Shown here piece after piece: positions 31,974 through 59,869 of a DNA stretch of 64,000 bases. Below the pieces are notes generated by a model. It had not been told where the DNA came from, ran no database searches, and saw only the letters and a program-made list of their open reading frames with translations. This stretch comes from Gammaproteobacteria bacterium (GTDB lineage Bacteria > Pseudomonadota > Gammaproteobacteria > Eutrophobiales > Eutrophobiaceae): the NCBI GenBank assembly GCA_965220815.1, contig OZ244846.1, positions 2,244,353-2,308,352 on the forward strand. Direction: 5' to 3'. Made by a program: the position numbers and the translations under genes. The stretch's first letter is position 1. Each line of letters starts with the position of its first letter.

Positions 31974-32402
31974 TTAAAGCAGTTTCCCCTTCACCCGGCA
32001 CGAGTGCCCTTCAAACAGGGCAATGAGATTATCGTCCTGGTCGATTACCTTGACCCGGTAGACCCCGTAGCGACCGTCCTGTGACAGGTGTTCGGCGGTC
32101 GCCGTAAGCCGGTCTCCCGCCTTGCCCGGGCGTTTGTATTCGATGGTGCACCTTTGCGCCAGGTTCGATTCGTTGCGGGAATTGCAGGCGCAGGCGAAGG
32201 CCGTGTCCGCCAGGGTGAAGATGAAACCGCCGTGGCAGATGCCGTGGCCGTTCAGCATTTCTGCAGTTATCTGCATAGTCAGACGTGCAAAGCCTTCCCG
32301 CACGTCGACAATGGTAATTCCAATGCTTTTCGCGGCGACGTCCCTGGAATACATCGCATCGACGCAGGCGCGGGCGAGCTCGTCACCCGTCAGGTCAGTC
32401 AC
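31974..32402 (-). CDS. paaI: PaaI-type hotdog-fold acyl-CoA thioesterase
   Basis: Motif [20 protein letters not shown] typical of PaaI. Overlaps the paaZ stop. Confidence 0.7.
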
Positions 32403-34440
32403 CCCGGCGTTCCACCAGGGTCATAACGTCGTACAGCGCCACGGTCTTGTCATCCTGGTTGATGATCTCCACCGCCCACCTCACTACCCCCGTGGCCCGG
32501 GCGTCGTCGGGGCGCTTGTCTTTTTTGATCTTCTGTTTCACCACGATTTTTGTCCGGATCGTATCGCCGATGCCCACCGGTTCGATAAAGCGCAGGTTTT
32601 CCAGGCCGTAGTTGGCCAGGACAGGTCCGGGCGCCGGGTCCACGAACATGCCGGCAGCCGCGGAGATCAGGAAATACCCGTGCGCGACCCGTTTGCCGAA
32701 CAACGAATCCGCCGCGGCGGTCTCATCGAAATGCGCATAGAAAAAATCACCGGTCAGGCAACCGAAGTTGACGATATCCGCCTCGGTTACGGTGCGCCGG
32801 TAGCTCTCATGGGTCTCGCCGATCTGCAGCTCTTCAAAGTATTTGCGGAACGGGTGCACCTCGTCCGTCAGCGGCGCCGCGCCCTGGTGGTATTCGCCCG
32901 TGAGGCGCATCAGGGTAGTCGGTGATCCCTGGATCGCAGTGCGCTGCATGTAGTGTTTGATGGCCCGCTCACCCCCCAGTTCCTCACCGCCGCCGGCCCG
33001 TCCGGGTCCGCCGTGGACCAGCGCCGGCAGGGGCGAGCCGTGGCCGGTGGATTCTGCCGCACAGTCCCGGTTGATGACCAGCAGACGGCCGTGCCAGGCT
33101 GCCGTGCCGAGGACGACCTGCCGCGCCTCCGCATCATCAGAGGTAAACACCGAGCCTACCAGGCTGCCCTTGCCTTTTTTTGCCAGTTCGATGGCCTCGT
33201 CCGTATTGCGGTAGGGTATGACCGTGCAGACCGGTCCGAACGCTTCAATGTCATGGGGTTCGGCAGCGGTCAGGGGTTGGTCGCAATACAACAGGGTAGA
33301 TGGGAAAAACGCCCCCTTGTCCCTGTCCCCGCCCCGGGTTTCGAACTCCCGGGAGCCGCCGTACAGGATTTCACAGGAACCGACCAGCCGGTTCACGTTT
33401 TCCCACACGTCCTCCATCTGCGCCCGGCCCACCAGGGGCCCCATTTTAACGCCATCCACCGAGGGGTCGCCCAGGGGGAGCCTGTCCAGCCTTTGCTTCA
33501 AAGCGGCAACAACCGCATCAACTCTGTGCGCGGGTACAATGGCGCGCCGGATTGCCGTGCATTTCTGCCCGGCCTTCACCGTCATCTCGCGGGCCACTTC
33601 CCGGATGAACAGGTTGAACTCGTCAGAGTCCGGCTCTACCGTCTCACCCAATAGCGACAGGTTCAGGGAATCCGCCTCCATGTTGAAGGGGATGGAATTT
33701 GCCGTCACGCCCGGATGGGATTTCAGTTTCCGTCCGGTGCTCGCCGACCCGGTAAAGGTGACCACGTCCTGCTCCATGAGGTGGTCGAACAGGTCGCCAG
33801 TGCGGCCGCAGAGCAACTGGAACGACCCTTCCGGCAGCAGGCCGGAACTGATGATTTCCCGCGCCATTTTCTCGGTCAGGTACGAGGAAACGGTAGCCGG
33901 TTTCACCACCACGGGCATCCCCGCGCACAGGCTGGGCGCGATCTTCTCCAGCATGCCCCAGCAGGGGAAATTAAACGCGTTGATATGGACGGCGACGCCT
34001 TCCCTGGGTACCAGGATATGCCGGCCGGTAAACGTCCCTTCCTTCGACAGGCGCTCCTGCTCGCCTTCCACCAGGAAGGTCTCGTTGGGGAATTCGCGCC
34101 GCACCAGGCTGCTGTAACTGAACAGCGTGCCGATGCCGCCTTCTATGTCGATCCAGCTGTCGGAATGGGTCGCTCCGGTCCAGGCCGATATTTCGTAGAA
34201 TTCCTCCTTGCGTTCCATCAGGTATTGCGCCAGCGCCTTCAGGCGCAGGGCGCGCTCATGGAACGTCATCCCGCGCAGCGCAGGACCACCGGTTTCCCGG
34301 GCATGGCGCAGGACGGCCCCGAAATCCACTCCGTCACTGGAAACGGTGCCTATGAAATCGCCGTTTACCGCATTCACGACCCGGGCGCCCTCGCTTTGCC
34401 CGCTGAACCATTCGCCTGTCACATAACTTTGTATTTTCAT
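32395..34440 (-). CDS. paaZ: Bifunctional PaaZ (oxepin-CoA hydrolase / 3-oxo-5,6-dehydrosuberyl-CoA semialdehyde dehydrogenase: N-terminal ALDH + C-terminal MaoC hotdog)
   Basis: 681 aa. The ALDH catalytic region (…TGS..TG…, …AGQKCTA…) is followed by the MaoC-like dehydratase fold. Confidence 0.85.
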
Positions 34441-34569
34441 TTCTCGATGTATCCGTTATAACATTTCATTAACCGGTTCCCGTTCATTATCTTTTAAGAT
34501 ATGATACGGAAATTGGATAATATCAGAAATTTCTGTAATAGTTTAAAACTGCCATTAAAGGTGCACAGT

Positions 34570-35871
34570 ATGACAGAGCAGGGGACATTTGACACCCTGG
34601 AGCCCATTGAAAAAGCCGGCATCGATGAGTTGCGCAACCTGCAACTGCAACGGCTGAAGTGGAGCCTGGAACACGCCTACGCCAACGTTGAAAGCTACCG
34701 GAAGAAATTTGACGCTGCCGGCGTCCATCCGTCAGACCTGAAGGAACTTGCCGACTTGTCCAAATTCCCGTTTACCGACAAGCATGACATGCGCGATAAC
34801 TACCCGTTCGGCATGTTTGCGGTGCCCATGGACGACGTGGTGCGCATACACGCCTCCAGCGGCACCACCGGCAAACCGGTGGTGGTGGGCTATACCCGCA
34901 ATGACATCGAGGTCTGGAGCCGCGTCGTGGCCCGCTCTATCCGGGCGGCCGGCGGCACTCATAAAGACAAGATACACGTGGCGTACGGCTACGGCCTGTT
35001 CACCGGCGGCCTGGGCGCCCATTACGGCGGCGAACTGATGGGTTGCACCGTCATACCCATGTCCGGCGGCCAGACGGAAAAACAGGCGCAACTCATACAG
35101 GACTTCGACCCCGACATCATCATGTTGACGCCGTCATACATGCTCAGTATCGCCGACGAACTGGAGCGCCAGGGCGTCGATTGCCGCAAGCTCAGGTTGC
35201 GAGTGGGGATCTTCGGCGCCGAACCCTGGACGGATTCCATGCGCGCCAACCTGGAACAGAGGCTGGACATCGACGCGGTGGACATATACGGTCTGTCCGA
35301 GGTCATGGGGCCCGGCGTTGCCCAGGAATGCGTGGAGACGAAGGATGGCCCCACCGTCTGGGAGGACCACTTCTACCCGGAAATCATCGACCCGGACACG
35401 GGAAAGGTATTGCCGGACGGGAAGGAGGGTGAACTGGTGTTCACCAGCCTCACCAAGGAAGCCCTGCCCGTAGTGCGCTACCGCACCCGGGACCTGACCC
35501 GGCTGCTGCCGGGAACCGCGCGCACCATGCGCCGCATGGGCAAGATCACCGGCCGCAGTGACGACATGCTGATCATCCGCGGCGTAAACGTGTTCCCCAC
35601 CCAGGTGGAAGAGCAGGTCCTCAAGGTCCCCGGCCTTGCTCCCCACTACCAGATCGAGGTCACCCGCAGCGGCAACCTGGACGAAATGAGCGTCAACGTG
35701 GAACTAGCCCCTGACGCCGATGCGATGGCGAAGCAGCCGGCGGCTGCCGCACTGCAGAAACACATCAAGGACCTGATCGGCGTCTCGGCAAGGGTCAACG
35801 TTCACGAAGAGGGCGGCGTGGCGCGCTCGGAAGGGAAGGCAAAACGCGTGATCGACAGGCGGAAGTTGTGA
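34570..35871 (+). CDS. paaK: Phenylacetate-CoA ligase
   Basis: Full-length PaaK similarity (SSGTTGKP AMP-binding motif, characteristic C-terminal domain). Start at the internal ATG (MTEQGTFDTLEP…). Confidence 0.9.
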   Translation: MTEQGTFDTLEPIEKAGIDELRNLQLQRLKWSLEHAYANVESYRKKFDAAGVHPSDLKELADLSKFPFTDKHDMRDNYPFGMFAVPMDDVVRIHASSGTTGKPVVVGYTRNDIEVWSRVVARSIRAAGGTHKDKIHVAYGYGLFTGGLGAHYGGELMGCTVIPMSGGQTEKQAQLIQDFDPDIIMLTPSYMLSIADELERQGVDCRKLRLRVGIFGAEPWTDSMRANLEQRLDIDAVDIYGLSEVMGPGVAQECVETKDGPTVWEDHFYPEIIDPDTGKVLPDGKEGELVFTSLTKEALPVVRYRTRDLTRLLPGTARTMRRMGKITGRSDDMLIIRGVNVFPTQVEEQVLKVPGLAPHYQIEVTRSGNLDEMSVNVELAPDADAMAKQPAAAALQKHIKDLIGVSARVNVHEEGGVARSEGKAKRVIDRRKL

Positions 35872-36007
35872 CCGCGCTTTTTATCAAGCCGGCTTTGGGT
35901 TATTTTGAACGCTCTGTTTGGAACTCGAAAAACCTTGACTTGCAACCGACAATACCCTTATTATGGTTCTCACTTAATATGTGAAATATAAGCCTGGGAA
36001 GATAAGT

Positions 36008-36259
36008 ATGAATATTACGCTGAGTATTGACGAGGAAATCATGAAGAAAGTGCGCAAGATAGCCATTGACAAGAATACGACGTTGACAGCTATGGTGCGA
36101 GACTACCTGACTGCCGTCGCAAAAAGCGATGCCGGCGTCAAACAGGAGCGTATTGCCGCGCTCAGAGAATCAATCAGGCGGCATGGCCGCGACCTCGGCC
36201 CGCGCACTTGGACCAGGGATGACCTCTATGAAGACCGACTTGGCCGCTATAACCGATAA
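36008..36259 (+). CDS. Ribbon-helix-helix antitoxin (VapB/CopG-like)
   Basis: MNITLSIDEEIMKKVRKIAIDKNTTLTAMVRDYL is an RHH beta-strand + helix pattern. Overlaps the downstream PIN gene. Confidence 0.6.
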   Translation: MNITLSIDEEIMKKVRKIAIDKNTTLTAMVRDYLTAVAKSDAGVKQERIAALRESIRRHGRDLGPRTWTRDDLYEDRLGRYNR

Positions 36260-36671
36260 GGTATTTTTCGATACCAATATCCTCGTCTATGCGTACGACC
36301 GGCAAGATCCGGTCAAACAGGAACGGGCCTTCAATATCCTTGCTGATGCTATCAGCAATGAGAATGGTGTCGTATCAGCACAGGTCCTGGGCGAATTTTA
36401 CAATGCAACTACCCGGCGTACTTCCAACCCGCTCCCAGAAGAAGTAGTGAGGGAAGCAATATCCCTGTTTGCTACCTTGCCGGTTATAGACATTGACCTC
36501 GCACTGGTGCAACGGGCGGTGGGCACCTGCAGCCGCTACCGGATTTCCTACTGGGACTCCTTGATCATAGCTGCCGCGGAAAAAGCAGGCTGTACGCGGA
36601 TTTACTCGGAGGATTTCAATACGGGCCAAACCTATCACGACATCCTTGTCGTCAATCCCTTTCAGTCCTGA
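36228..36671 (+). CDS. vapC: VapC-type PIN-domain toxin
   Basis: VFFDTNILVYAYD… with the PIN acidic quartet pattern. 147 aa from the ATG at 36228. Confidence 0.75.
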   Translation: MKTDLAAITDKVFFDTNILVYAYDRQDPVKQERAFNILADAISNENGVVSAQVLGEFYNATTRRTSNPLPEEVVREAISLFATLPVIDIDLALVQRAVGTCSRYRISYWDSLIIAAAEKAGCTRIYSEDFNTGQTYHDILVVNPFQS

Positions 36672-36834
36672 CCCGGAATCGGAAAATAGCAGAATTAGAA
36701 ACTGTGCTCCATCCGTTCAAACGCTTCATGTTAGACTGACCCCAGCATTCAAATTTGAAAGATAAAGTGATTAGAAATAAATAGTTACAGGTTTTTCATC
36801 CTGATAATTTCAGATCGCTAACGCGGCACTGCCG

Positions 36835-37047
36835 TCAGGATTCGTTTTTGGCGTCAGTGCTGCGTGCGGTGACGATTTTGGATAAGGCATCAGGGTATTC
36901 CACCCAAAGAGAATATTCCGGCAAGGTCATGCCGAGGAAATCGTAAATTGACTTGTTACTATTGCCTTGGTGCCACCGCTCGATATAGGTATCTATATCG
37001 GTAAGCCGGGCGGTCCCGGAAAGGTAATCTTGAATGAAATCAGACAC
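36835..37047 (-). CDS. Hypothetical small protein, 70 aa
   Basis: ORF 8 nt downstream of the MORN gene stop. No family assignment. Confidence 0.3.
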   Translation of the reverse strand: MSDFIQDYLSGTARLTDIDTYIERWHQGNSNKSIYDFLGMTLPEYSLWVEYPDALSKIVTARSTDAKNES

Positions 37048-37055
37048 GGATTTTC

Positions 37056-38582
37056 CTACTGGTATTCCCTGTCATAAACCATTCCGCCTACATAAGTAAC
37101 AGTTGCCGATACAGCGCCATCGGCAGAACGGGAGACCCATTGACCGCTCTTCTTGCCGTCCACGTAAAGACCTTCAAATACACCGCCATCATCGTAGCGG
37201 AAGACCCACTCACCGCTCTTCTTGCCCTCTACATAGGAGCCTTCCTCCACATGGGCGGAGGTGCGGAGGGTCCACTGGCCGTGCCGCTTGCCATCCATAT
37301 AAGGGCCTTCGGATACGCTGCCATCAGTGTAGCGAATGACCCACTGACCCTGCCGCTTGCCGTCCACGTGGGGCCCTTCCGCTACAATGACGCTGGCAGA
37401 TGAGCGCATCCCACCGAGATGCATGGCGTCCACGTAGCGGTCGTTCTCCACAGTGCCATCGGCGTAACGAATGATCCCCTGGCCTTGTGGCATGCCGTCC
37501 ACGTAGAAGCGTTCGTATACATTTCCATCGGCGTAACGGAAGTTCCAATGGCCGTGCCGTTCGTCGTCCACGAAGGAGCCTTCCTCCACATTTCCATTGG
37601 CATGACGGAAGATCCACTGGCCGTTCCGCTTGCCCCCCACATAGGAGCCTCTCGCTATACTGCCCTCGAAGGTGCGATGGGTCCACTGGCCGTGCATCTC
37701 GCCGTTCACATAAGAGCCTCCCCCATCCTCGCCATCGGCAAAGCGAATCAGCCAATGACCATGCTTAATGCCGTTCACGTAGGGGCCTTCCTCCACATCG
37801 CCATTGGCATGGCGAATCACCCAATGACCGTGCTGTTTGCCGTCCACGAAGGAGCCTCCCCCCACATCGCCACTGGCATAGCGAATGACCCACTGACCGT
37901 GTTCCTTGCCGTCCAAGTAGGAGCCTTCGAGTACAGCAGCGTCATCAGCAAGGCGAATCACCCACGGACCGTGCTGTTTGCCGTCCACGAAGGAACCTTC
38001 ATACACAACAGCGTCATCGACGGAGCGCATGATCCAGCGGCCGTGCCGCTTGCCGCCCTTAAACTGCCCTGTGTTTGTGTTCTTTGTCTCTCCATCACCT
38101 TTCAAATCCCAGGTATCCTCACCCATTCCTTCCGCCAGTCCGTTGGCACATCTGCCGCTCCATGTGACGGTTGAGTTGGCTATCAGACTGGGGTTCCAGA
38201 TATAACATCCGGTTGGGTCTTCCAACTCCATCCAGCATGCGCTGCCCTCCGGTTTGTCCGCGCACGTCATCTTGTCTTCCTGTAGCTTTTCTGCATCCGA
38301 TGGTGCGCCAATTCCGTTGCCCATCATGGCCGCAATTACGCTTTCCGCTATGCCCGCCTCCCGGAGCGCAACAAGCTGTTCTTCCGACATGTCAAAGTCG
38401 GTTCGACCGGACCGGATTATGGCGATGATGATTTCAGTCTCCAGCCCAGCCCGGTTCAAGCGCAGGATGTCCTCATTGGTGAGCGCCGCATCGTCGGCGC
38501 CAGGGGCCGGTGTGATAACAAGTATTAGAAGCCATACAGAAACCATTTGCCGGAAGAGGCTAGTCAGGGGCATCGTTTTCAT
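37056..38582 (-). CDS. Secreted MORN-repeat protein, about 15 tandem ~23-aa MORN-like units
   Basis: Signal peptide (MKTMPLTSLFRQMVSVWLLILVITPAPGA), then a Cys-containing N-terminal domain, then repeated G.Y.DGK.HG.WVIR.ADG…EG units. The start at 38582 forms an ATGA overlap with the upstream methyltransferase-like gene. Confidence 0.7.
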   Translation of the reverse strand: MKTMPLTSLFRQMVSVWLLILVITPAPGADDAALTNEDILRLNRAGLETEIIIAIIRSGRTDFDMSEEQLVALREAGIAESVIAAMMGNGIGAPSDAEKLQEDKMTCADKPEGSACWMELEDPTGCYIWNPSLIANSTVTWSGRCANGLAEGMGEDTWDLKGDGETKNTNTGQFKGGKRHGRWIMRSVDDAVVYEGSFVDGKQHGPWVIRLADDAAVLEGSYLDGKEHGQWVIRYASGDVGGGSFVDGKQHGHWVIRHANGDVEEGPYVNGIKHGHWLIRFADGEDGGGSYVNGEMHGQWTHRTFEGSIARGSYVGGKRNGQWIFRHANGNVEEGSFVDDERHGHWNFRYADGNVYERFYVDGMPQGQGIIRYADGTVENDRYVDAMHLGGMRSSASVIVAEGPHVDGKRQGQWVIRYTDGSVSEGPYMDGKRHGQWTLRTSAHVEEGSYVEGKKSGEWVFRYDDGGVFEGLYVDGKKSGQWVSRSADGAVSATVTYVGGMVYDREYQ

Positions 38583-39397
38583 CTCTGGCATTCCAGTTCC
38601 CAACCCATGCTGCCAGCCAATTCTGCGAGTTCCCGGTTCCGCCCTTTCACGAGTTTCGCCAAGTTATCAGAGAGCAGAACCCCACATCCCTTAAGGTCCT
38701 GGCTGGGCTTTGCCCCGCAGTCAGACCACAAAACCTGCCACGCCTCACATTGCGTGCGTTCCAGCAACTTCAGCGGCTTTGTAGGCCAGAAAAACGGATA
38801 CCAGGCCGCAAACGACTGATCTTGGCATTTCAGTTTTTTACATGTCTCAGCCAGGGAATTCCAATCCCTGTCCCTGGCTGCATTTGGAGAAAACGGAGGG
38901 TCGAGAAATGTCAAATCTTTGTCATTTTTATCGACGGCTCTTGTGAATCCATCATCTTGACAGAATGTCACTTCAACATTTTCGGGAACATATCCCCTTT
39001 TTTTCAGGTTGTACAAATCTTCATCACTATAATGGCATGCAACTTCCTCGCTGTTATCAAAGAGTGAAATCTGTACCCGTTTGAATCTTTTAGCAAGTAC
39101 ATTTGCTACGACCAGCCAACCGGACGGATATTTTTCCGGCGAATATTTTTTGACTATGTCCACATAAAAGTTGTCATTTGTTTCGCTATCAATTAAACAT
39201 TTGACGCCATGCTGCCATCCCCTGCCTTTGCTCAGGATATGAACAGGCGCGCCTGCGTGGCAATCAATATAGTGAATGGAATCTGAAGCCGAGGATAAAT
39301 TCCTTGCAATAATGGTCAGTATGAAATGTTTCCAGACATCACCCCTGTTTCCAGCTTTTTTGGAGTGATTGTAGCGTTTAACGTGGGAGTTGCCCAT
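38579..39397 (-). CDS. RlmJ/DUF519-family N6-adenine methyltransferase-like protein, 272 aa, divergent and low GC
   Basis: YNHSKKAGNRGDVWKHFIL matches RlmJ YRHSFHAGNHADVLKH. YIDCHAGAP matches YLDTHAGAG. FLDPPF matches IDPPYE (catalytic DPPY/F). AAWYPFF matches ALWYPV. Confidence 0.55.
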   Translation of the reverse strand: MGNSHVKRYNHSKKAGNRGDVWKHFILTIIARNLSSASDSIHYIDCHAGAPVHILSKGRGWQHGVKCLIDSETNDNFYVDIVKKYSPEKYPSGWLVVANVLAKRFKRVQISLFDNSEEVACHYSDEDLYNLKKRGYVPENVEVTFCQDDGFTRAVDKNDKDLTFLDPPFSPNAARDRDWNSLAETCKKLKCQDQSFAAWYPFFWPTKPLKLLERTQCEAWQVLWSDCGAKPSQDLKGCGVLLSDNLAKLVKGRNRELAELAGSMGWELECQR

Positions 39398-39421
39398 GAT
39401 CAGTATCAGTTGTGCTTCTGT

Positions 39422-39907
39422 TCAGTTGTGCTTCTCTAGCATCTCATTCAGCCAGGCTTTGGGGGGCTTGAGTTCTTTGCCTTTCAGCTTTAAAACCCCG
39501 TTCCGGACTACTTCAATTTCCAGGCGCTGCCTACCGTTTCTCCGGTAACTTCCGATCCAGCCCATCTGGCCAGAGTTGGGCAGGTCCGCCCAATTGCCAG
39601 CCATGCTTACGCCGTTATCCACTAAGACCCGGGTGAATGCCTTATGGTCGAATCGAATCGTACCGTTGTCCACGTAGTTAAACTGCCCTGCCAGTTTCTT
39701 TGCCAACCAGTCACTGTAGTAATTCGGGTTACGATACTCCTTAACTGCTTCCTTGATTGCATCCTCAATTACGGATTTTTTTAAAGCATACTCAACGTGT
39801 GCTTCCACTCTTTCCCAAACCTCGTCCGTGACTTCAATTCCACGCCAAATCTCATGGCCATTTGGCCATTCCTCTCTTTTTATTTCTACTTCGATGATTT
39901 TATTCAT
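39422..39907 (-). CDS. Hypothetical protein, 161 aa, first gene of the low-GC three-gene operon
   Basis: ORF with RBS-compatible spacing. No recognisable domain. GC content clearly below the window average. Confidence 0.4.
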   Translation of the reverse strand: MNKIIEVEIKREEWPNGHEIWRGIEVTDEVWERVEAHVEYALKKSVIEDAIKEAVKEYRNPNYYSDWLAKKLAGQFNYVDNGTIRFDHKAFTRVLVDNGVSMAGNWADLPNSGQMGWIGSYRRNGRQRLEIEVVRNGVLKLKGKELKPPKAWLNEMLEKHN

Positions 39908-39943: not shown

Positions 39944-40450
39944 CTAATACTCCGTCACACCCAGCTTGTCCTTGATTTTGACAATCAGTTCTTCGCGGCG
40001 ATGATGCATGTCGATCAGCGGTTCCTTGCGTAACTTTGCGATTTCCTCCGAGTCATAGGGCACGAACGGGTCGGGAAGTTCATTTTTGCTGAAATTCAGC
40101 AGCATCCAGTTCATCACGTCGGCCAGTTCCTGGTCCGAGATGGGGGCGCCGGCCGCGCCCGGGACCTGTACGATGAATTCCCTGCCGCCGGGCACGTGCA
40201 GGAAGTAACCGACGAAATCGTTCATCTTCGGTACGTTACCCTTGGAGCCGGACCCGTCCGGCAGGTGGCAGCCCTGGCAGTTCAGGATGTAGTTCTGGCG
40301 CGCAAGTATTTCATTGGCGCCGGTAGTTGCGCTGGCGCTTAACAGGATCAGGAGCAGGAATCCGGTGAATAATGTGTTGCCAAGGGTGGCATGTTTGTCT
40401 ACGTCCCTGTTCCTGGATACCGGCCATTCCCTGGCCGGTATGACGAACAA
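39944..40450 (-). CDS. Monoheme c-type cytochrome, periplasmic, candidate electron acceptor for the adjacent amine dehydrogenase
   Basis: A single CQGCH motif. The proposed TTG start at 40450 yields a signal peptide (…TLFTGFLLLILLSASATTGA). The track ORF extends further upstream into mauA. Confidence 0.6.
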   Translation of the reverse strand: MFVIPAREWPVSRNRDVDKHATLGNTLFTGFLLLILLSASATTGANEILARQNYILNCQGCHLPDGSGSKGNVPKMNDFVGYFLHVPGGREFIVQVPGAAGAPISDQELADVMNWMLLNFSKNELPDPFVPYDSEEIAKLRKEPLIDMHHRREELIVKIKDKLGVTEY

Positions 40451-40458
40451 GGCGTTCG

Positions 40459-40977
40459 TCACTTTATCGCCACGCCCAGGATGAGGTTCACGGTGCAGTG
40501 ATAAGCCGTGCTCTCCGTGCCCAGGCACCAGTTGTAATCATTGGAGGTATGGGGCCGGTAGGTGGGTCTGTCCCCTTCGTTCCTGTTGCAGAAGCAGTTG
40601 CCGCAGGACGTTTTGCCGCAGCAGTCGTTGTAGGAGATGATGTAATCCTTGCCGTCACCCGGGTTTTTGCAGGTGCCGATCCAGGTGATAGTCGACATCT
40701 CCGTGCCTGGCGGGCAACTGTTGATGGTGCCGCCGCAGCAGGAGCACAGGTAGCCGTCAATGGCGCAGTTGCGCCAGTATTCGCAGGTGGCCGGGTCTCC
40801 CGGGTCTACCGCGGGCGGGCTTGGTTGTTTCCCTTCCGCGGCGCGGGCGACCGGAAGCAGGGGCATGACCGATCCGCCTGCGATTACTGCGCCGAGTCCG
40901 CCCAGGAATCCCCTGCGGGAAGACGTCCTGGCTACGTTTCTGGTGAGGTTTTCCGTTAGTCTGTCCAACCAGTTCAT
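40459..40977 (-). CDS. mauA: Methylamine/aralkylamine dehydrogenase light (small, TTQ-bearing) subunit
   Basis: Tat-like signal (SSRRGFLGGLG), 12-Cys pattern, and close collinear similarity to the Paracoccus MADH light chain (CEYWRNCAIDGYLCSCCGGT.NSCPPGT … YNWCLGTE…YHC), including both TTQ tryptophan positions. Confidence 0.8.
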   Translation of the reverse strand: MNWLDRLTENLTRNVARTSSRRGFLGGLGAVIAGGSVMPLLPVARAAEGKQPSPPAVDPGDPATCEYWRNCAIDGYLCSCCGGTINSCPPGTEMSTITWIGTCKNPGDGKDYIISYNDCCGKTSCGNCFCNRNEGDRPTYRPHTSNDYNWCLGTESTAYHCTVNLILGVAIK

Positions 40978-40999
40978 ATTCTTTATCTCCCGCCGGCGC

Positions 41000-42160
41000 C
41001 TATTGCGAAGCATAGACCAGCAACGGCCAGTTATGGTAGAAATCGGCAATGGTGTTGAGGTGCTCGCCGGACCGGGCGTCATAGACTTCCAGGCTCATCT
41101 CAATGTTGGTGGTCACGATTTTCGGCGCATCGCCCATGGTGATGTCGAAAGCGATGGCCGGCAGCGTAAGCGGTATGCGCTGCACCCGCGTTTTACTGTC
41201 GGGATCGAATACCCAGATCTCCGAACCGGGGTAGTCATGGCTGCCTTCCTCGCCGTTTTCGTGCATCATCACGTAAAGTCGCCCGGTGCTGTCCGTCGCC
41301 GCCAGCCAGGCGCCGCCGGGGCGCCAGTTCTGCTCCCTGTCCTCATCGTTGAGCAGGCTCCATTGCTCACCGAGGTGGGCCGCGGCGCCGCTCAAGTCGA
41401 TTTCCTGCACCACGCCGTTGAAACTGGGAAAGTAACCCGTGCCGCCGATGATCGCCGGCCTTTCGAACAGGGCGTCCTCGTCGACGTCAAAGAACGGTTC
41501 AATCTTGCCCTGTTCGGTCACCTGGCCGTCTTCATCAAGCTGGAAACTGACCATGGAGCCGTTGCCGCACAAGGAACTGAACCCGCGTTTACCGGTGGGA
41601 TAAATGCCGGCGCAGGTCGGCAACGGGACGCCGTTGACGACCTCGCGTTTTTCCAGGTCGATCACGGTGACGAAGGTGCCGGGCGTGAAGCTGTAAAACA
41701 GCAGGAACCTTTCGTCGTCGATGAGCGAAATGACATACTTGCTGACCAGTATCTCCGCCCGTTTGAGTTTGGGATCGTCGAGGATGATTTCATCGACAGG
41801 CTGCAGGGTGGCCCTGTCGTAAATGGTCAAGACGTCGGTGCGGTTGCCGCGGGTGCCGCGGTCATAATAGTGCTCGAGCACGTACATTTCCGGTTTCTTC
41901 AGCGCCTGGGTAAAGGCCGCAATGAACCCGCCATTGAAACTTCCCTTGAAAAAATCCTTGATGTCCCCGCCGTTGATATCCAGCACCATGAAACGGCCCA
42001 CGGACATGTGATCGAAGGCGATGTCGTGGACGATGACCCAGTCGTTCGGGTAGGGAACAGGCAGGGTTTCGATCCTGCCCGGTTCATCAACCGGCAAATC
42101 CGCCAGGGCGGAATGTGTCATACCCAGAAACAGTATAAATCGCAGAAATTGTTTAAGCAT
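41000..42160 (-). CDS. mauB: Methylamine/aralkylamine dehydrogenase heavy subunit (7-bladed beta-propeller)
   Basis: Signal peptide and full-length similarity to the MauB/AauB family. Directly upstream of mauA with a 22-nt gap. Confidence 0.75.
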   Translation of the reverse strand: MLKQFLRFILFLGMTHSALADLPVDEPGRIETLPVPYPNDWVIVHDIAFDHMSVGRFMVLDINGGDIKDFFKGSFNGGFIAAFTQALKKPEMYVLEHYYDRGTRGNRTDVLTIYDRATLQPVDEIILDDPKLKRAEILVSKYVISLIDDERFLLFYSFTPGTFVTVIDLEKREVVNGVPLPTCAGIYPTGKRGFSSLCGNGSMVSFQLDEDGQVTEQGKIEPFFDVDEDALFERPAIIGGTGYFPSFNGVVQEIDLSGAAAHLGEQWSLLNDEDREQNWRPGGAWLAATDSTGRLYVMMHENGEEGSHDYPGSEIWVFDPDSKTRVQRIPLTLPAIAFDITMGDAPKIVTTNIEMSLEVYDARSGEHLNTIADFYHNWPLLVYASQ

Positions 42161-42267
42161 TATCGGATCTCAGTGGTAACAGGACAGACCTGATATATTA
42201 TACCCGTCTCTGTAATAATTGACGATAACCCTTTTTTCCTGAATTCAACAAACGCAAGGAGTCCGAA

Positions 42268-43365
42268 ATGGCAACAGGCTTTGTCTATCACGAACTTTAC
42301 ATGTGGCATGAGAACGGCAACTTTGCGGCTTTCATGCCTTTCGGAAACCCCGTGCAGCCCTATGTGCACGCGGAGCACCAGGAAACCAAGCGGCGCATAC
42401 GCAACCTGCTGGACGTCAGCGGCATCCTGAAGGACCTGATCCATATCGAGCCGCGGGAGGCTGTGAGGGAGGAAATCTGCCGGTTCCACACCCCGGATTA
42501 TTACGAGAGGATCAAGGCGCAGAACGACCAGTACCTGTCCGAGACCGGATTTTTCACCGCGATGGGCCGCGGCAGTTTCGAGATCTGTTCCCTGGCTGCC
42601 GGCGGCGTGATCGAGGCGGTCGATGCGGTGCTGGACGGCAGGGTGGACAATGCCTACGCCCTGGTGCGGCCGCCGGGACACCACGCCCTGGCCGATATGG
42701 GCATGGGGTTCTGCATATTCGGCAACGCGGCCATCGCCGGCATGCACCTGCTGGAGGAGCGCAAGCTGGACCGTATCGCCATAGTCGATTGGGACGTGCA
42801 TCACGGCAACGGCACCCAGGCCGCTTTCTGGAACAATCCCGCCGCCCTGACCATATCGGTGCACCAGGACAACTGTTTCCCTCCGGATTCGGGCCACATC
42901 AGCGAGGCGGGGGAGGGCGCCGGCGCGGGCTTCAACATCAACGTGCCGCTGCCTCCGGGTTCGGGAGTCGGCGCTTATGAGGCCGTCTATGACCGCATCG
43001 TCGTCCCGGCGCTGCAAAGGTACAAACCGGATTTCATCATCGTTCCGTCCGGCTTCGATGCGGGGGCGCACGACCCCCTGGGGCGGCAGATGTTGACCAG
43101 TGAATGCTTCCGCAGCCTGACGGCAAAGATGATGCAGGTCGCGGACGAGGTATGCGGTGGCCGCCTGGTGTTGTGCCATGAAGGTGGTTACAGCGGTCAC
43201 ACGGTGCCGTTCTTCGGCCTTGCGGTGATGGAACAGTTGTCAGGGATCAGTACAGGGGTCGAAGATCCGTTCGAACAGGTGCTGGCGGGCCTGGGAGGAC
43301 ATCCCCTGCAGCCGCACCAGGACGCGCTGATCCGCGCGGTGGAACCGCTGCTGGAGAAACTGTGA
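42268..43365 (+). CDS. Histone deacetylase-family amidohydrolase (acetoin utilisation / acetylpolyamine amidohydrolase-like)
   Basis: Zn-binding and catalytic motifs (…RPPGHHA…, DWDVHHGNGTQ…, GFDAGAHDPLG). Confidence 0.8.
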   Translation: MATGFVYHELYMWHENGNFAAFMPFGNPVQPYVHAEHQETKRRIRNLLDVSGILKDLIHIEPREAVREEICRFHTPDYYERIKAQNDQYLSETGFFTAMGRGSFEICSLAAGGVIEAVDAVLDGRVDNAYALVRPPGHHALADMGMGFCIFGNAAIAGMHLLEERKLDRIAIVDWDVHHGNGTQAAFWNNPAALTISVHQDNCFPPDSGHISEAGEGAGAGFNINVPLPPGSGVGAYEAVYDRIVVPALQRYKPDFIIVPSGFDAGAHDPLGRQMLTSECFRSLTAKMMQVADEVCGGRLVLCHEGGYSGHTVPFFGLAVMEQLSGISTGVEDPFEQVLAGLGGHPLQPHQDALIRAVEPLLEKL

Positions 43366-43638: not shown

Positions 43639-44076
43639 TCAAGTCCCGCTTTCAACCAGGTGTCGGATACGAAAAATTTCAGCCTCATGTGACGCGCAGG
43701 TAAGGCGCCAGCGTTCATCGCCGGCGTTCGCGCTGCGCCAGGCAACCAGGCTCAGCAGGCAGTTGCCGGCGCCCCTGCCGATGTGTTCACCCGGGATGAC
43801 CCTGGAGATAATGCGCGGGACCAGGCGGGCCGGGTCTTCGCCAACCTCGTAATCCACCTGCAACAGCTCGCGGTTCGCCTTCAGGCGGCAATAGACTTCA
43901 AGGTCTTCATAGAGACTCTTCCCGACAAACGTATCGTTTCCGGCGGGTTTCAGGCCCCAGGCGCCGAATGCCCACCGGCCCATCATTTCCGTATCCGTCA
44001 AAAATTCAAATGCCTCGATCGCAGGAACGGCAATGGGAAGCGTCGCCGTGTGGCACAGGGGGTCGGACAGGTTCAT
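43639..44076 (-). CDS. SRPBCC (Bet v1-like / polyketide cyclase-dehydrase-like) family protein
   Basis: Size and pattern are consistent. Low-confidence family assignment. Confidence 0.4.
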   Translation of the reverse strand: MNLSDPLCHTATLPIAVPAIEAFEFLTDTEMMGRWAFGAWGLKPAGNDTFVGKSLYEDLEVYCRLKANRELLQVDYEVGEDPARLVPRIISRVIPGEHIGRGAGNCLLSLVAWRSANAGDERWRLTCASHEAEIFRIRHLVESGT

Positions 44077-44149: not shown

Positions 44150-45439
44150 TCAGAAACCGAGATAACGGGGCAATAAAAGACTGATTTCCGGTATGTAGGT
44201 GACGATGACGAGCGCGATCACATTTACCAGCAGCAATGGCGCGATTGCCTTGATCAACGTGAATAAATCACAACCGGCAATGGTTTCCGCAGTCAGCAGG
44301 CAGATGCCGAGGGGGGGTGTAAGCAGGCCTATATTGAGGTTCAGTATCATTATCACGGAAAAATGCAGGGGATGGATGCCGATATTGGTTGCCGCAGCCA
44401 GGAGCAGGGGTGAAAACAGGATAATTGCCGCGGCGGTATCGATGAACATGCCGGCAATCAATAAAAACACATTAAGGAACACCAGGCTCGTGATTGCCGA
44501 CATGTCCATGGAAACCAGGAAGGAGTTCAACAGGTCCGGCACGTGCTCCACCGCCAATATCCAGGAAAGTATTGAACCGCACCCCACCAGTATCATCAGT
44601 TGTGATGAAAATACCATTGCCCGCGAGAAGATCCCCGGCAGGCTGTCAAGCCTGAGGGTCCGGTACAGCCGCAGGGTGATGAGCAGGGTATAACCTGCCG
44701 CGATGGCGCCGGCTTCGGTGGGTGTGGCGATGCCGGCGATAATACAGACGACGATGATAAGCGGTATCATCAGGGGAACTATGGCCGAGCGGGTCGCCTG
44801 CATGACGGCCGGAAACGAGCGGTCGATGTCCCTGCGCCGGGAAGCCGCCTGTGGCAGCGCCGCAACCAGCAGCATCTGCATGACCCCGATCAATATGCCG
44901 GGAATGACACAGGCTGCGAACATTGCGCCGATGGACATGCCGGTGGCCGCGCCGAATACGATGATTACCAGTGAAGGCGGCACCATCGGGCCGACAATCG
45001 ATGAAGCCGCCGTCACGGCTGCCGCGTAGGCTGCCGGGAAACCCTGTCCGGTCATTGCCGGTATGAAGACCCTGCCCAGCGCCGCGACGTCTCCGACGGC
45101 CGTGCCCGTGATGCCGGAAAAAAGAATTGATGTGGCGATGTTGACCTGCGCCAGGCCGCCGCGCAGCCGGCCGAAACAAACGTCCGCCATATTGATTAAC
45201 TTATCGGTAACCCTGCCTGCGTTTATTATTTCGCCTGTGAGGACGAACAGGGGGATGGCCAGCAACACAAACACGTCGATACCTTCGAACAGGCGCTGGG
45301 GAATAATCTGTAGAAAATGATAATTGCCGGTAAAGATAATCCAGGAGACCGACGCGCACAGCATGGCCCAGGCAATGGGCATGCCTGCCAGGATAAATGA
45401 CAGGAAGACCGCAATCAGAACAATCAGGGAAACGCTCAT
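44150..45439 (-). CDS. dctM: TRAP transporter large permease subunit
   Basis: 429 aa and about 12 TM helices with DctM-family similarity. Confidence 0.85.
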   Translation of the reverse strand: MSVSLIVLIAVFLSFILAGMPIAWAMLCASVSWIIFTGNYHFLQIIPQRLFEGIDVFVLLAIPLFVLTGEIINAGRVTDKLINMADVCFGRLRGGLAQVNIATSILFSGITGTAVGDVAALGRVFIPAMTGQGFPAAYAAAVTAASSIVGPMVPPSLVIIVFGAATGMSIGAMFAACVIPGILIGVMQMLLVAALPQAASRRRDIDRSFPAVMQATRSAIVPLMIPLIIVVCIIAGIATPTEAGAIAAGYTLLITLRLYRTLRLDSLPGIFSRAMVFSSQLMILVGCGSILSWILAVEHVPDLLNSFLVSMDMSAITSLVFLNVFLLIAGMFIDTAAAIILFSPLLLAAATNIGIHPLHFSVIMILNLNIGLLTPPLGICLLTAETIAGCDLFTLIKAIAPLLLVNVIALVIVTYIPEISLLLPRYLGF

Positions 45440-45963
45440 GGTTCAAGCCGGGAGTTAACCCGGGTTAAAATGCGGACAATGGATACGACTGATGCAACAG
45501 TGAAAAAAACGGGTATCGCAGCAACCGGAACCGACAGGGGGATTCCCATGGCGATACTTTTTTCAAGGTGCAGAAACAGCGCCAGTTTGAATCCGTAAAC
45601 TGCTACGAGCGCATACAGGCAAAAACTGATCAATTCGAGAAACAATCCAAACCAGTTTCCGGTCAAGCGGTCAAAAAAATATTGCAGCACGCCAACCCGT
45701 ATATGAGTGCCATGAACGATGGCGGATGCAACGCCTGAAAATACGCCCCAGGTGCAGAGATAACGCGCGGCTTCCTCCATGAAAAACGGCACGGACTGCA
45801 ACAGGTAACGCATCGCAACCTGTACGATGATTACCAGGAACACCAGCGCGAGGCTGGCGCCGGCGACAACCCGGAGCGCCTGGTCCAGCCTGCCGATCAT
45901 CGTTTCAACCCCCGGGCCGGTATCAATGCCTGGCATGTCTGCTTGCCGAGACAACTTCATCAA
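45436..45963 (-). CDS. dctQ: TRAP transporter small permease subunit
   Basis: 4-TM, 175-aa protein overlapping the dctM start. Confidence 0.75.
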   Translation of the reverse strand: MMKLSRQADMPGIDTGPGVETMIGRLDQALRVVAGASLALVFLVIIVQVAMRYLLQSVPFFMEEAARYLCTWGVFSGVASAIVHGTHIRVGVLQYFFDRLTGNWFGLFLELISFCLYALVAVYGFKLALFLHLEKSIAMGIPLSVPVAAIPVFFTVASVVSIVRILTRVNSRLEP

Positions 45964-46906
45964 TGAGCGCCGGATCCAGCATTTTCCCGCGCAGGTAGTC
46001 TATGGAAACGGAAAGCGCCGGCCCGGCAAGGATTTCTTTTTCTTCAGGAGACGGCCTGGAGATGGTTACCCCGGTTGCCTCAATCCGTTTCGGCAGTTCC
46101 GGTTCCAGTTCTTTCATCATCCTGCGGTTATGGGCAATCCCCTTCTCAGCCGCACGCTGTATTATCTCCTGCAGCCGGTCGGGAAGATCGTCGAAGAACT
46201 GGGCATTCATCACCATCACGGCCAGCGGCAGCCGGTGTTTATCGAGGAACAGGTATTTCTGCACTTCGTAGAACCTGAGCACATCCATGACCCACAGGTT
46301 CAGGTCCGCGCCGTCCGCCACGCCGATCCTGAGCGCAGTGTACAGTTCATTGAACGGGATGGGCAAGGGAGATCCGCCGTGCACGCGGACCGCTATGGCG
46401 TTGATGGGAGACAGCACCCGGATTTTTTTACCGGCCAGGTCTGAAGCGTTTTTGATTGGCCGGCTTGAACTGTAGTGGGCAAAATCACCGGTGATAAACC
46501 ACCCAAGCGCACGAATCCCCGTTGTCTGCCTCATGCCCTCGGCCACTTTCCTGCCGACCGGCCCATCCAGGATTTCCCAGGCATCGCCGGCATCTTCGAA
46601 CAGGTACGGCAGGCTGAACACCTGGATATCGGGGTAGAGCGACGCCAGGTTTCCGATTGCCGGGTCGCTCATCTGGATCATGCCGGCCCGTACCTGGCGC
46701 AGGCGGGAATCCGCGTTGCCGAGCATGCCGCCGTAATAGATTTCCACCTTAATCTCGCCATTTGCGTTTTTATGCACCTCATCCCGGAAAGTTTCATACA
46801 TGCCGTTCACCAGCTTCATGGCCGGAATGTGTTCCGGCATGGCCAGTCCTATGATGAGTTTCTTTTCTGCGTGGCAGATTTGCGGGACAGACAGGGAAAA
46901 CAGCAA
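45923..46906 (-). CDS. dctP: TRAP transporter substrate-binding protein
   Basis: DctP-family body. The start is uncertain. The track ORF runs to 47032 through REP1 copy 46932-46974, so a TTG at 46906 (…LFSLSVPQICHA|EKK) is proposed. The upstream ATG at 47005 is an alternative. Confidence 0.7.
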   Translation of the reverse strand: MLFSLSVPQICHAEKKLIIGLAMPEHIPAMKLVNGMYETFRDEVHKNANGEIKVEIYYGGMLGNADSRLRQVRAGMIQMSDPAIGNLASLYPDIQVFSLPYLFEDAGDAWEILDGPVGRKVAEGMRQTTGIRALGWFITGDFAHYSSSRPIKNASDLAGKKIRVLSPINAIAVRVHGGSPLPIPFNELYTALRIGVADGADLNLWVMDVLRFYEVQKYLFLDKHRLPLAVMVMNAQFFDDLPDRLQEIIQRAAEKGIAHNRRMMKELEPELPKRIEATGVTISRPSPEEKEILAGPALSVSIDYLRGKMLDPALIDEVVSASRHARH

Positions 46907-46931
46907 CAGGCACAGCCTGGGGATTGATCCT

Positions 46932-46974
46932 GGGGTCAGAGTAAGAATTTCGTCAGAAATTTTACTCTGACCCC
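46932..46974. repeat. REP family 1 copy
   Basis: GGGGTCAGAGTAAGAATTTCGTCAGAAATTTTACTCTGACCCC upstream of, or within the 5' end of, dctP. Confidence 0.8.
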
Positions 46975-47201
46975 ATATATCAAGTATTGTCTCCCCGAAT
47001 TTCATGTCCCCGGAATTACGCTTGCAACCCATGCAATATAACAGTAAATTGGAAAATCCGCATACGGGTACACACTAGACAGCGCCGGAGAAATGAAACC
47101 AGCCGAATACATTTCCTGTGACGGACTCGGCCGCGCCCTGGCCGTTGAATGCGCCGTTGCCTGAACAACGGTAGAATGTCTGTGAGGACTTACGTCGCAG
47201 G

Positions 47202-57868: not shown

Positions 57869-58819
57869 ATGACCGATACGACAGCGTTATCCGATACGTT
57901 CCAGAAGCGGGTCGATGCCGAGGAGAAAATCGAACCGCGTGACTGGATGCCGGACGCCTACCGGAAAACCTTGGTCAGGCAGATATCCCAGCACGCCCAT
58001 TCCGAGATTGTCGGACAGTTGCCGGAGGGTAACTGGATTACGCGGGCGCCGACCCTGCGGCGCAAGGCGATCCTGCTGGCCAAGGTACAGGACGAGGGCG
58101 GGCACGGCCTGTACCTGTACAGCGCCGCGGAAACCCTGGGCGTCTCCCGGGAAGAACTGATCGACCAACTGCATTCCGGCAAGGCCAAGTATTCCAGTAT
58201 CTTCAATTACCCGACCCTGACCTGGGCGGACATCGGCGCCATCGGCTGGCTGGTGGATGCCGCGGCCATCCTGAACCAGATCCCCCTGTGCCGCTGCTCC
58301 TACGGTCCTTATGCCCGGGCCATGGTGCGTATCTGCAAGGAGGAGAGCTTTCACATGCGCCAGGGTTATGAACTGCTGATGACCCTGTGCCGCGGCTCCG
58401 ACGAACAGAAGGCAATGGCCCAGGACGCGGTAAACAGGTGGTGGTGGCCGGCGCTGATGATGTTCGGTCCCAGTGACGCCGATTCAACCCACTCCGCCCA
58501 GTCCATGCAGTGGAAGATCAAGCGTTTCAGCAATGACGACCTGCGCCAGAAGTTCGTGGATCAATCCGTCCCCCAGGCGGAATACCTGGGTATTACGCTC
58601 CCCGACCCGGACCTCAAATGGAATGAAGAACGCGGCCATTATGATTTCGGCGAGATAGACTGGGAAGAGTTCTTCCAGGTCATTGCCGGCAACGGCCCCT
58701 GCAACCACGAGCGCATGAGCGCCCGCATCAAGGCCCATGAAGACGGCGCCTGGGTGAGGGAAGCCGCCCTGGCCTATGCGGACAAGCAACGGCAACGGGC
58801 CGAAAAGGTCGCCGCTTGA
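57869..58819 (+). CDS. paaA: 1,2-phenylacetyl-CoA epoxidase subunit A
   Basis: Ferritin-like di-iron ligand motifs (…QHAHSE…, …EESFHMRQG…) and the conserved paaABCDE order. Confidence 0.9.
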
Positions 58820-58830
58820 GGAGAGAATCC

Positions 58831-59864: not shown

Positions 59865-59869
59865 AAACC

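Follow-up and report, generated by a model that had tools for sequence, protein, structure and literature searches.

A predicted aromatic amine dehydrogenase-type operon without linked maturation genes in a gammaproteobacterial phenylacetate region

How an enzyme dependent on tryptophan tryptophylquinone (TTQ) might acquire its cofactor when its two subunit genes stand beside nothing but a small cytochrome gene is the question raised by a locus in contig OZ244846.1 of a gammaproteobacterial genome, analysed here within a stretch of 64,000 nucleotides (the window). A preliminary description of this DNA proposed a minimal mauB–mauA–cytochrome cluster devoid of mauD, mauE, mauF and mauG, and offered two explanations: maturation genes located elsewhere, or a distinct, streamlined system in which the cytochrome serves as direct electron acceptor. 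The reading favoured here, to which a probability of about 0.68 is assigned as a whole, is that the three genes form a single intact operon encoding a periplasmic quinoprotein amine dehydrogenase of the aromatic amine dehydrogenase (AADH) type, together with a small haem c protein. Within its widespread, little-studied group the operon is rather unremarkable.

The cluster is real: three co-directional open reading frames (ORFs) on the minus strand span positions 39944–42160. The first (41000–42160) encodes a heavy (alpha) subunit of 386 aa resembling AauB/MauB, with an N-terminal Sec-type signal (MLKQFLRFILFLGMTHSALA) legible in its translation and a match to PF06433 (Me-amine-dh_H, a seven-bladed propeller; E = 5e-33) that covers profile positions 29–334 of 343; the second (40459–40977) encodes an AauA/MauA-like light (beta) subunit as a 172-aa precursor (PF02975, E = 4e-50), and, as judged from sequence, these E-values rule out chance for both subunits. 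The third (39944–40462) encodes a c-type protein of 172 aa, counted from a GTG codon, assigned to a family termed c1 by its CQGCH motif and by orthology; the single CxxCH bears out the description of the linked redox gene as monohaem. The heavy-subunit TAG (41002–41000) and the light-subunit ATG (40977–40975) are separated by exactly the 22 nt first reported (40978–40999, minus strand), within which a GGAG at 40990–40987 reads as the ribosome-binding site of the light-subunit gene, and the likeliest c1 start, GTG at 40462–40460, overlaps the light-chain TGA (40461–40459), with a TTG at 40450 as the alternative. A candidate promoter on the minus strand (TCGTCA-17 nt-TATAAT, 42197–42225), weak at a 10/12 consensus match, lies ∼37 nt 5' of the heavy-subunit ATG, inside a 107-nt divergent intergenic region common to the heavy-subunit gene and an HDAC-like gene. 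A terminator scan found no minus-strand terminator 3' of the cytochrome gene. Antisense to the heavy-chain gene runs a plus-strand ORF of 477 aa (40760–42193), which was treated as a high-GC artefact.

Homologues of these proteins carry the database name 'methylamine dehydrogenase light chain', and the matching Pfam families are likewise named for methylamine dehydrogenase (MADH), so that public annotation would make the enzyme a MADH; this identity is very improbable. Both subunits score below the NCBIfam equivalog cut-offs for MADH (heavy, TIGR02658, 120 of the required 454 bits; light, TIGR02659, 167 of 197). Among solved structures, the large subunit of Alcaligenes faecalis AADH is the best match of the heavy chain and much nearer than MADH (E = 5e-49 vs 2e-29), and the light subunit is 54% identical to AADH over the mature domain vs 49% to MADH. 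The light chain, which bears a recognisable twin-arginine leader (SRRGFLGGLG...PVARA), contains 14 Cys, not the 12 counted in the preliminary description, all of them invariant in 26 relatives and in the pattern of AADH. Both TTQ tryptophans are present as had been stated (W99 and W150 in precursor numbering, with the 51-residue spacing of MADH); in alignments to PDB entries they coincide with the TTQ Trp of both enzymes, and they are invariant in the 26 relatives. D74, D118 and T162 match residues conserved in AADH and MADH alike. Amicyanin and mauFJGMN are absent from the 64-kb window, and the neighbouring genes belong to aromatic acid catabolism, not C1 metabolism. On sequence grounds the enzyme is thus AADH-like and not a MADH, given the best solved matches, the 14 Cys and the scores below the MADH cut-offs, and the MADH assignment was rejected on these scores, on the Cys pattern and on the genes around the operon. 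The genes first named mauB and mauA are closer to aauB and aauA.

It had also been envisaged that the genes might be a pseudogenised duplicate of a complete cluster, and some relatives do carry a second, paralogous cluster. Against seven relatives, dN/dS is 0.12–0.31 for the heavy subunit, 0.07–0.15 for the light subunit and 0.09–0.39 for c1, a range (0.07–0.39) that excludes the pseudogene reading; no reading frame is disrupted, signal peptides, a ribosome-binding site and every catalytic and cofactor residue are retained, and the operon and its phenylacetate (paa) synteny are kept over 47–95% protein identity. A decaying, non-functional copy of a complete cluster elsewhere is accordingly scarcely credible. 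Purifying selection argues only that the genes are functional. The product would be a periplasmic α2β2 TTQ enzyme of AADH type with predicted amine dehydrogenase activity, its heavy subunit exported via Sec and its light subunit probably directed by the twin-arginine leader.

The surroundings of the operon are those of phenylacetate catabolism. A PaaK-like phenylacetate-CoA ligase gene (34501–35871, plus strand; PF00501 and PF14535) is accompanied on the minus strand by genes for a PaaZ-like protein (32395–34440; aldehyde dehydrogenase and MaoC domains) and a PaaI-like thioesterase (31974–32402), all three assigned by domains and synteny, and the ring-epoxidase genes paaA–paaE occupy 57869–61477 on the plus strand (PaaA, 57869–58819; PaaC, 59112–59864; PaaE, 60395–61477), with PF05138 matches at E = 1e-100 and 1e-93 and reductase domains in PaaE. 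The same paa synteny occurs in relatives L001, L002, L009, L011, L013 and L089; in 29 of the 80 family loci a gene for PaaK, PaaZ or aldehyde dehydrogenase lies within 10 kb, and L003 adjoins homoprotocatechuate-pathway genes. Between operon and paaK lies a variable inserted block of lower GC (35981–39907; GC 0.49), outside the system, that holds an antitoxin/PIN toxin pair, a MORN-repeat protein and two ORFs without family; it is missing in L001, where paaK directly adjoins the cytochrome gene, and in L008 (97–99% identical) ∼0.7 kb replaces positions 35.85–39.42 kb, most of the block. The position of the operon among paaK/paaZ/paaI and paaA–E suggests arylethylamine catabolism. From this context we infer that the substrate is most likely an arylethylamine (phenylethylamine or similar), converted to an arylacetaldehyde and ammonia; the aldehyde would be oxidised to phenylacetate, for degradation by the products of the neighbouring paaK, paaABCDE and paaZ. 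The 64-kb window yielded no separate phenylacetaldehyde dehydrogenase.

The reported absence of mauD, mauE, mauF and mauG from the window was upheld, and extends to mauJ and amicyanin. Searches by tblastn with MauF, MauE, MauD, MauJ, MauG, MauM, MauN and amicyanin of Paracoccus versutus, and with MauE and MauD baits from three other clusters, gave no match in the window below E = 0.05, and no window ORF carries two CxxCH motifs, hence no di-haem MauG-type ORF. This gene content recurs throughout the AADH-like family, surveyed here at 80 reference-genome loci with 95 light-chain genes: MauG, MauF, MauJ and amicyanin were found at none of the 80 loci, and a cytochrome gene follows the light-chain gene in 77/95 cases. 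About one third of the light-chain genes (31/95) directly follow the heavy-chain gene, as here, and 21/95 have no mauE or mauD within 10 kb; nine bare B–A pairs directly adjoin a full B–E–D–A–cyt cluster, and a 73% identical relative (L012) has the order B–A–cyt–E–D. Among plasmids, true MauG was confined to Paracoccus and Azospirillum replicons. Cultured bacteria that carry the family include Halioxenophilus aromaticivorans KU68F and Kineobactrum sediminis F02. Since loci across the family normally have a c-type cytochrome gene after that for the light chain and lack mauG, mauF and amicyanin, a 'distinct, streamlined system' is unsupported as stated.

The other explanation, maturation genes elsewhere, fares better for mauE and mauD. 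These were found 20–37 kb away in all three bare-operon relatives on long contigs, upstream of the heavy-chain gene in two of them: L002 and L088 lie 37 kb apart on one 836,315-bp record, with mauE–mauD 37 kb upstream of the heavy-chain gene; L089 and L090 share a 237,231-bp contig with an orphan mauE–mauD 30 kb upstream; and L092 and L093 lie 20 kb apart on a contig of 393,252 bp. These distances, with a window that extends just 21.8 kb upstream of the operon, support the explanation, even though the pair was not found for the organism itself. MauE and MauD are therefore most likely encoded a short way beyond the window in the same genome, whether as an orphan pair or within a second paralogous cluster, and would plausibly act in trans, MauE as a DsbB-like membrane oxidase and MauD as a DsbA-like protein of thioredoxin fold, on a light subunit that would require seven disulfides and a Trp99–Trp150 quinone cross-link.

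Alternatively, these helpers may have been lost, with general periplasmic DsbA/DsbB making the seven light-chain disulfides of an otherwise self-sufficient operon. Consistent with this are the 21 of 95 family light-chain genes without mauE or mauD nearby, and the lack of both within 10 kb, in the available sequence, of the five closest relatives (L001 and L008–L011). Searches with MauD baits (L034 MauD and the orphan P0216) are nominally in keeping with it, as the closest relatives' contigs (437,715, 4,341,124, 207,521 and 2,756,965 bp) are absent among the best 120 matches listed, but they are uninformative, since that list reaches down to about 60% identity in a database that apparently does not hold OZ220696.1, the complete chromosome of L010, on which the light chain is 91% identical (95% in L008 and L009). 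MauE complements dsbB and MauD is DsbA-like (bioRxiv 10.64898/2026.03.05.709764), and the interchangeability of MauE with DsbB in Escherichia coli makes the reverse substitution plausible. Against Dsb proteins alone stand the distant mauE–mauD of every relative checkable on a long contig, a spacing that the window and 10-kb flanks are too short to reveal. Methylotroph mauD and mauE mutants, moreover, lack the small subunit despite the presence of Dsb proteins. A MauE/MauD-independent enzyme is thus considered unlikely, and a detached mauE–mauD pair is preferred.

The linked haem protein presents a less familiar picture. A hydrophobic signal segment precedes the CQGCH motif, which is invariant in the c1 family, and the protein is orthologous to the cytochrome encoded after aauA in Steroidobacteraceae (49% identity), Novosphingobium (41%) and Pseudomonas aeruginosa (32%); the family falls into no fewer than 773 clusters at 50% identity, and no curated family corresponds to it. 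An AF2 model (pLDDT 94.9) adopts a class I cytochrome c fold, a single-sequence AlphaFold model having been discarded at pLDDT 43, and Foldseek places cytochrome c552 and domains of electron-transfer cytochromes at the top of its matches. The nearest solved protein in both sequence (E = 7e-7) and fold (TM 0.62) is Thermus thermophilus cytochrome c552 (PDB 1C52, 1DT1), which shares with c1 the CxxCH, a GGRE motif and the C-terminal helix; its ∼18-residue axial-Met loop, however, is deleted in c1, with an invariant V-P-G instead. No conserved axial Met, His, Lys or Cys was found among 82–104 family members, in which Met columns reach a maximum frequency of 38–53% and 6/82 and 8/104 members have no Met at all after CxxCH. 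A paralogue, c2, keeps the canonical His/Met axial ligand, and c2–c1 fusions, with one canonical and one Met-less haem, were found within TTQ clusters.

TTQ electrons would leave the enzyme through a periplasmic carrier, for which the co-transcribed c1 is the obvious candidate. The missing axial ligand is atypical for an electron shuttle, so the putative direct-acceptor role appears less obvious than the preliminary description assumed. As MauG is linked to no member of the family, oxygenation of the TTQ may be performed by a factor unlinked to the operon, or by one other than MauG. A diverged MauG was tried as an identity for c1 and rejected, hhalign giving a probability of 7% and no relationship beyond CxxCH.

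A more speculative proposal is that c1 is not, or not only, an acceptor, and instead acts in TTQ biogenesis, its open or unusual distal site replacing the oxidising role of MauG, alone or together with c2. The 0/80 count for MauG, the position of c1 directly after the light-chain gene (whose stop codon its start frequently overlaps), the lack of a conserved axial ligand in c1 and its retention in c2, and the c2–c1 fusions inside TTQ clusters are all compatible with such a function, as are two genomes in which a single c1 seems to be shared by two pairs of enzyme genes. Weighed against these are the lack of detectable MauG homology, the nearest folds, all of them electron-transfer cytochromes, and the place of c1 in the gene order, which in mau clusters is held by the acceptor amicyanin; a biogenesis role is consequently rated improbable. 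It is with similarly low confidence that an AADH-type TTQ may be pictured as maturing without MauG, the Met-less c1 haem, alone or paired or fused with c2, oxygenating and cross-linking both tryptophans; if true, c1-driven maturation would constitute a second, non-homologous route to TTQ. Electron transfer through a periplasmic carrier, with c1 as candidate, is the role retained in the favoured reading.

The puzzle of a TTQ enzyme without maturation genes dissolves at this locus, because in the AADH branch linkage to mauG, mauF or amicyanin was never seen (80 loci), and mauE and mauD frequently sit apart, one pair being shared by paralogous clusters. This is of use for annotation: hundreds of such genes carry the public label 'methylamine dehydrogenase', although what they encode and what surrounds them point, in marine and sponge-associated Gammaproteobacteria, to the breakdown of aromatic amines into the phenylacetate or homoprotocatechuate pathways. 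Two questions are sharpened: what makes TTQ in a branch lacking linked mauG, and what role is played by a conserved haem protein without axial Met. Both are experimentally tractable using the three-gene operon.

Compared with the MADH systems of Paracoccus and Methylobacterium (mauFBEDACJGMN), the operon shares the two Pfam families, the TTQ Trp pair and the twin-arginine leader of the light chain; the MADH heavy chain is 27% identical to that encoded here, the P. versutus light chain has 12 Cys where 14 are present here, and the amicyanin and mauF/E/D/J/G/M/N genes linked in mau clusters have no counterpart in the window. Nothing resembling MauG (CCP_MauG), the di-haem TTQ maturase, is encoded in the window, the linked haem protein being non-homologous, and MauE and MauD, detached from the subunit genes in relatives as an orphan pair or within a paralogous cluster, likewise fall outside it. 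Cytochrome c552 is the acceptor in bacterium W3A1, whereas A. faecalis AADH reportedly passes its electrons to azurin. In the aau cluster of A. faecalis a monohaem cytochrome gene reportedly follows that for the light chain and mauG is not linked, and the cytochrome gene here is a putative equivalent of A. faecalis orf-2. In P. aeruginosa and Novosphingobium, aau-type clusters have a monohaem cytochrome gene behind that for the light chain and lack a linked mauG, as does the present operon, which is distant from P. aeruginosa in its heavy chain (33% identity to AauB) and has just the 22-nt gap where aau-type clusters carry aauE and aauD between the subunit genes. The closest parallel is A. faecalis AADH (aau; PDB 2AGL, 2H3X), the best solved match of the heavy subunit: whereas the present operon lies in a paa region and belongs to an uncultured gammaproteobacterium of marine or sponge-associated origin, its light chain shares with that of A. 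faecalis the 14-Cys framework (14 in the PDB fragment), both TTQ Trp and the Asp and Thr active-site positions, and the catabolic context points, as for AADH, to aromatic amines.

The minus strand at 39944–42160 is filled by three same-direction ORFs that form an uncharacterised member of the known aromatic amine dehydrogenase (AADH) kind, in an arrangement common to about a third of its family. The first (42160..41000) encodes a 386-aa heavy subunit (methylamine dehydrogenase heavy-chain family PF06433, E 5e-33); the second, from the ATG at 40977–40975, a 172-aa light-subunit precursor (light-chain family PF02975, E 4e-50) with a twin-arginine leader (SRRGFLGGLG); and the third, from an in-frame GTG at 40462, a haem protein with one CQGCH, while a promoter-like site (10/12 match) lies on the same strand at 42225–42197. 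As read from the DNA, the heavy-chain TAG (41002–41000) and light-chain ATG leave a 22-nt gap with a GGAG, exactly the spacing reported in a preliminary description, and the haem-protein GTG overlaps the light-chain TGA (GTGA), suggesting that the two genes may be translationally coupled. Purifying selection acts on each of the three genes, with dN/dS against seven relatives of 0.07–0.15 (light chain), 0.12–0.31 (heavy chain) and 0.09–0.39 (haem protein), ruling out pseudogene status.

Sequence comparison places the encoded enzyme in the AADH branch of tryptophan-tryptophylquinone (TTQ) dehydrogenases, despite the database names of its homologues. This assignment follows from scores below the NCBIfam methylamine dehydrogenase (MADH) equivalog thresholds, well under for both the heavy chain (120 bits; cut-off 454) and the light chain (167 bits; cut-off 197); from closer AADH matches, the heavy chain finding Alcaligenes faecalis AADH at 5e-49 among solved structures and any MADH at 2e-29 or worse, and the light chain sharing 54% identity with the AADH light chain and 49% with P. 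versutus MauA; and from a 14-Cys pattern, CSCCGG...CGKxxCGxCxC, common to the AADH light chain. The preliminary description had credited the light chain with both TTQ tryptophans and 12 Cys; the tryptophans are present (W99 and W150, 51 positions apart), but 14 Cys are counted, 12 being the MADH number.

Accessory genes are indeed absent beside the heavy- and light-chain genes, as first described: tblastn with the reference Mau set and amicyanin (MauF/B/E/D/A, amicyanin and MauJ/G/M/N from the annotated P. versutus cluster, with further MauE/MauD queries from Novosphingobium, P. aeruginosa and Steroidobacteraceae clusters) gave no accessory match in the 64-kb window, which also holds no ORF with two CxxCH motifs. 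The suggestion that this marks a distinct, streamlined system finds no support in the family. Annotated aau-type clusters read aauB–mauE–mauD–aauA–cytochrome c, with mauG not within 9 kb, and a search covering each GTDB species with a single genome yielded at least 587 relatives, of which the best 80 loci (95 light-chain genes) were classified. Heavy- and light-chain genes flank mauE/mauD in 62 of the 95 and are directly adjacent in 31, two lying unclassifiable at contig edges; among the 31, 21 have no mauE/mauD within 10 kb, nine adjoin a complete B–E–D–A–cytochrome cluster and one (locus L012) has mauE/mauD just downstream (B–A–cyt–E–D). A c-type cytochrome follows the light-chain gene in 77/95, whatever the layout, and a MauG, MauF, MauJ or amicyanin homologue occurs in none of these best 80 loci. 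A plasmid survey found true MauG (>50% identity) only on Paracoccus and Azospirillum replicons; replicons with AADH-type clusters carry at most generic peroxidase homologues (~35% identity, >1 Mb distant). Lack of mauG and mauF, with a cytochrome replacing amicyanin, is thus the family norm, and direct adjacency is common.

Tandem paralogous TTQ dehydrogenases occur in L021, L024, L031, L048, L051, L082, L086 and L087, and in L026 and L060, as a bare B–A pair just upstream of a full cluster or as B–A–B–A–cytochrome; bare-pair light chains form a separate clade in a neighbour-joining (NJ) tree, which suggests an old duplication with divergent substrate specificity.

The other proposal, that maturation genes lie elsewhere, is supported by relatives. 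The window's own clade (L001, L002, L008–L011, L013, L014, L089) is uniformly B–A–cytochrome, and in three members with long contigs MauD was located on the same contig: ERZ21736675:ctg14271l (836,315 bp) has the bare operon at ~133–135 kb and a full B–E–D–A cluster with MauM/N-like genes at ~170–172 kb, 37 kb upstream; JGI Ga0556614_0000010 (237,231 bp) has B–A–cyt–PaaK–PaaZ at ~180–182 kb and an orphan mauE–mauD at ~150–151.5 kb, 30 kb upstream; and ERZ25067590:ctg29369_5x_l (393,252 bp) has the operon at ~376 kb and a full cluster at ~357 kb, 20 kb away. Because the window stops 21.8 kb upstream of the heavy-chain gene, its lack of mauE/mauD says little about the genome. Action of MauE/MauD in trans would be expected mechanistically, since MauE can replace DsbB and MauD is DsbA-like (bioRxiv 10.64898/2026.03.05.709764). 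That the lineage depends instead on general Dsb proteins, without MauE/MauD, appears unlikely beside the helper genes found 20–37 kb off on these three contigs. Two same-contig pairs of loci (L002 + L088, L092 + L093) combine B–A–cytochrome lacking mauE/mauD with B–E–D–A lacking the cytochrome, 20–37 kb apart, as though one helper set and one haem protein served both enzyme gene pairs. DUF2783, metallo-beta-lactamase-fold and FAD monooxygenase genes repeatedly flank the detached mauE–mauD pair and second TTQ clusters (L090:5481–7941, L088:11792–14890, L003:2065–4850).

The operon sits within a phenylacetate-catabolism region, with a TetR regulator, PaaI, PaaZ and PaaK at 30.6–35.9 kb and PaaA/C/E at 57.9–61.5 kb. 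The order HDAC-like gene, heavy chain, light chain, haem protein, PaaK, PaaZ recurs in L001, L009, L011, L013 and L089, whose light chains are 70–95% identical to the window's; the TTQ locus of the more distant L003 (Steroidobacteraceae) adjoins homoprotocatechuate-pathway genes, and PaaK, PaaZ or an aldehyde dehydrogenase lies within 10 kb in 29/80 family loci. Together these neighbourhoods support a putative route from arylethylamine through arylacetaldehyde to arylacetate; no stand-alone phenylacetaldehyde dehydrogenase was found within the 64-kb window. Divergent from the heavy-chain gene is an HDAC/acetylpolyamine-amidohydrolase-like gene (42268–43365, plus strand), followed on the minus strand by a 145-aa ORF of unknown function (43639–44076) and a DctMQP TRAP transporter (44150–47032). 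In L001, L009–L011 and L089 the operon likewise has an HDAC-like neighbour, frequently together with an amidase or Amidohydro_3 gene, a conservation hinting that the amine may come from an N-acylated precursor.

Between operon and paaK lies a variable insert (35981–39907, GC ~0.49) of an antitoxin/PIN-toxin pair (35981–36671), a small ORF (36835–37047), a 515-aa MORN-repeat protein (37056–38603) and two ORFs of no family (38579–39397, 39422–39907). It is missing from L001 and mostly swapped for ~0.7 kb in L008; another insertion, of PDDEXK, GIY-YIG and WYL genes, occupies the site in L002. L008 (CAYOEQ010000187.1), which matches the window at 97–99% identity, is catalogued as 'uncultured Enterobacteriaceae bacterium', apparently through an error of binning or taxonomy; other close relatives are all unclassified Gammaproteobacteria MAGs, the name of one, RHO3_bin_19, suggesting a sponge metagenome.

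Apart from the operon's haem protein, a single ORF of the window has a CxxCH motif: a canonical monohaem cytochrome c (2359–2898, minus), which is unrelated to the amine dehydrogenase and adjoins a molybdopterin oxidoreductase (2834–4147, minus; Oxidored_molyb + Mo-co_dimer), the pair resembling a SorAB-type sulfite dehydrogenase. The operon's haem protein (c1) has orthologues in the cytochromes that follow aauA in further aau-type clusters (identity 49%, 41% and 32%); its family comprises at least 773 clusters at 50% identity (E <= 1e-10) and lacks a curated model in Pfam or NCBIfam. AlphaFold, with an 82-sequence alignment, confidently predicts a class I cytochrome c fold (pLDDT 94.9), nearest to T. 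thermophilus c552 (TM 0.62) and electron-transfer cytochrome domains; unlike in c552, the axial-Met loop is deleted, an invariant V-P-G standing in its place. Two independent sets (104 tblastn-derived sequences from L001–L095, and 82 full-length sequences) contain no conserved Met, His, Lys or Cys after CxxCH, and 6–8 members wholly lack Met there; the conserved polar residues are R49, N73, W74, E95, R100 and R111 (mature numbering). By its position in amicyanin's slot and its fold, c1 is likely the electron acceptor. The missing axial ligand would also allow a maturation role, which is unlikely; c1 shares no homology with MauG past the haem motif. The most valuable leads are family-wide, not locus-specific: MauG-free TTQ formation and a ligand-less haem protein. 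A paralogue in some clusters, c2, keeps the canonical G-V-M-P loop, and c2–c1 fusions are found inside TTQ clusters, including di-haem proteins joining a canonical His/Met, c2-like domain to a Met-less c1 domain beside TTQ dehydrogenase genes (L094:266–1108, L095:85–1209). Without sequence homology, these fusions resemble in outline the one-open, one-closed-haem logic of MauG and peroxidases.
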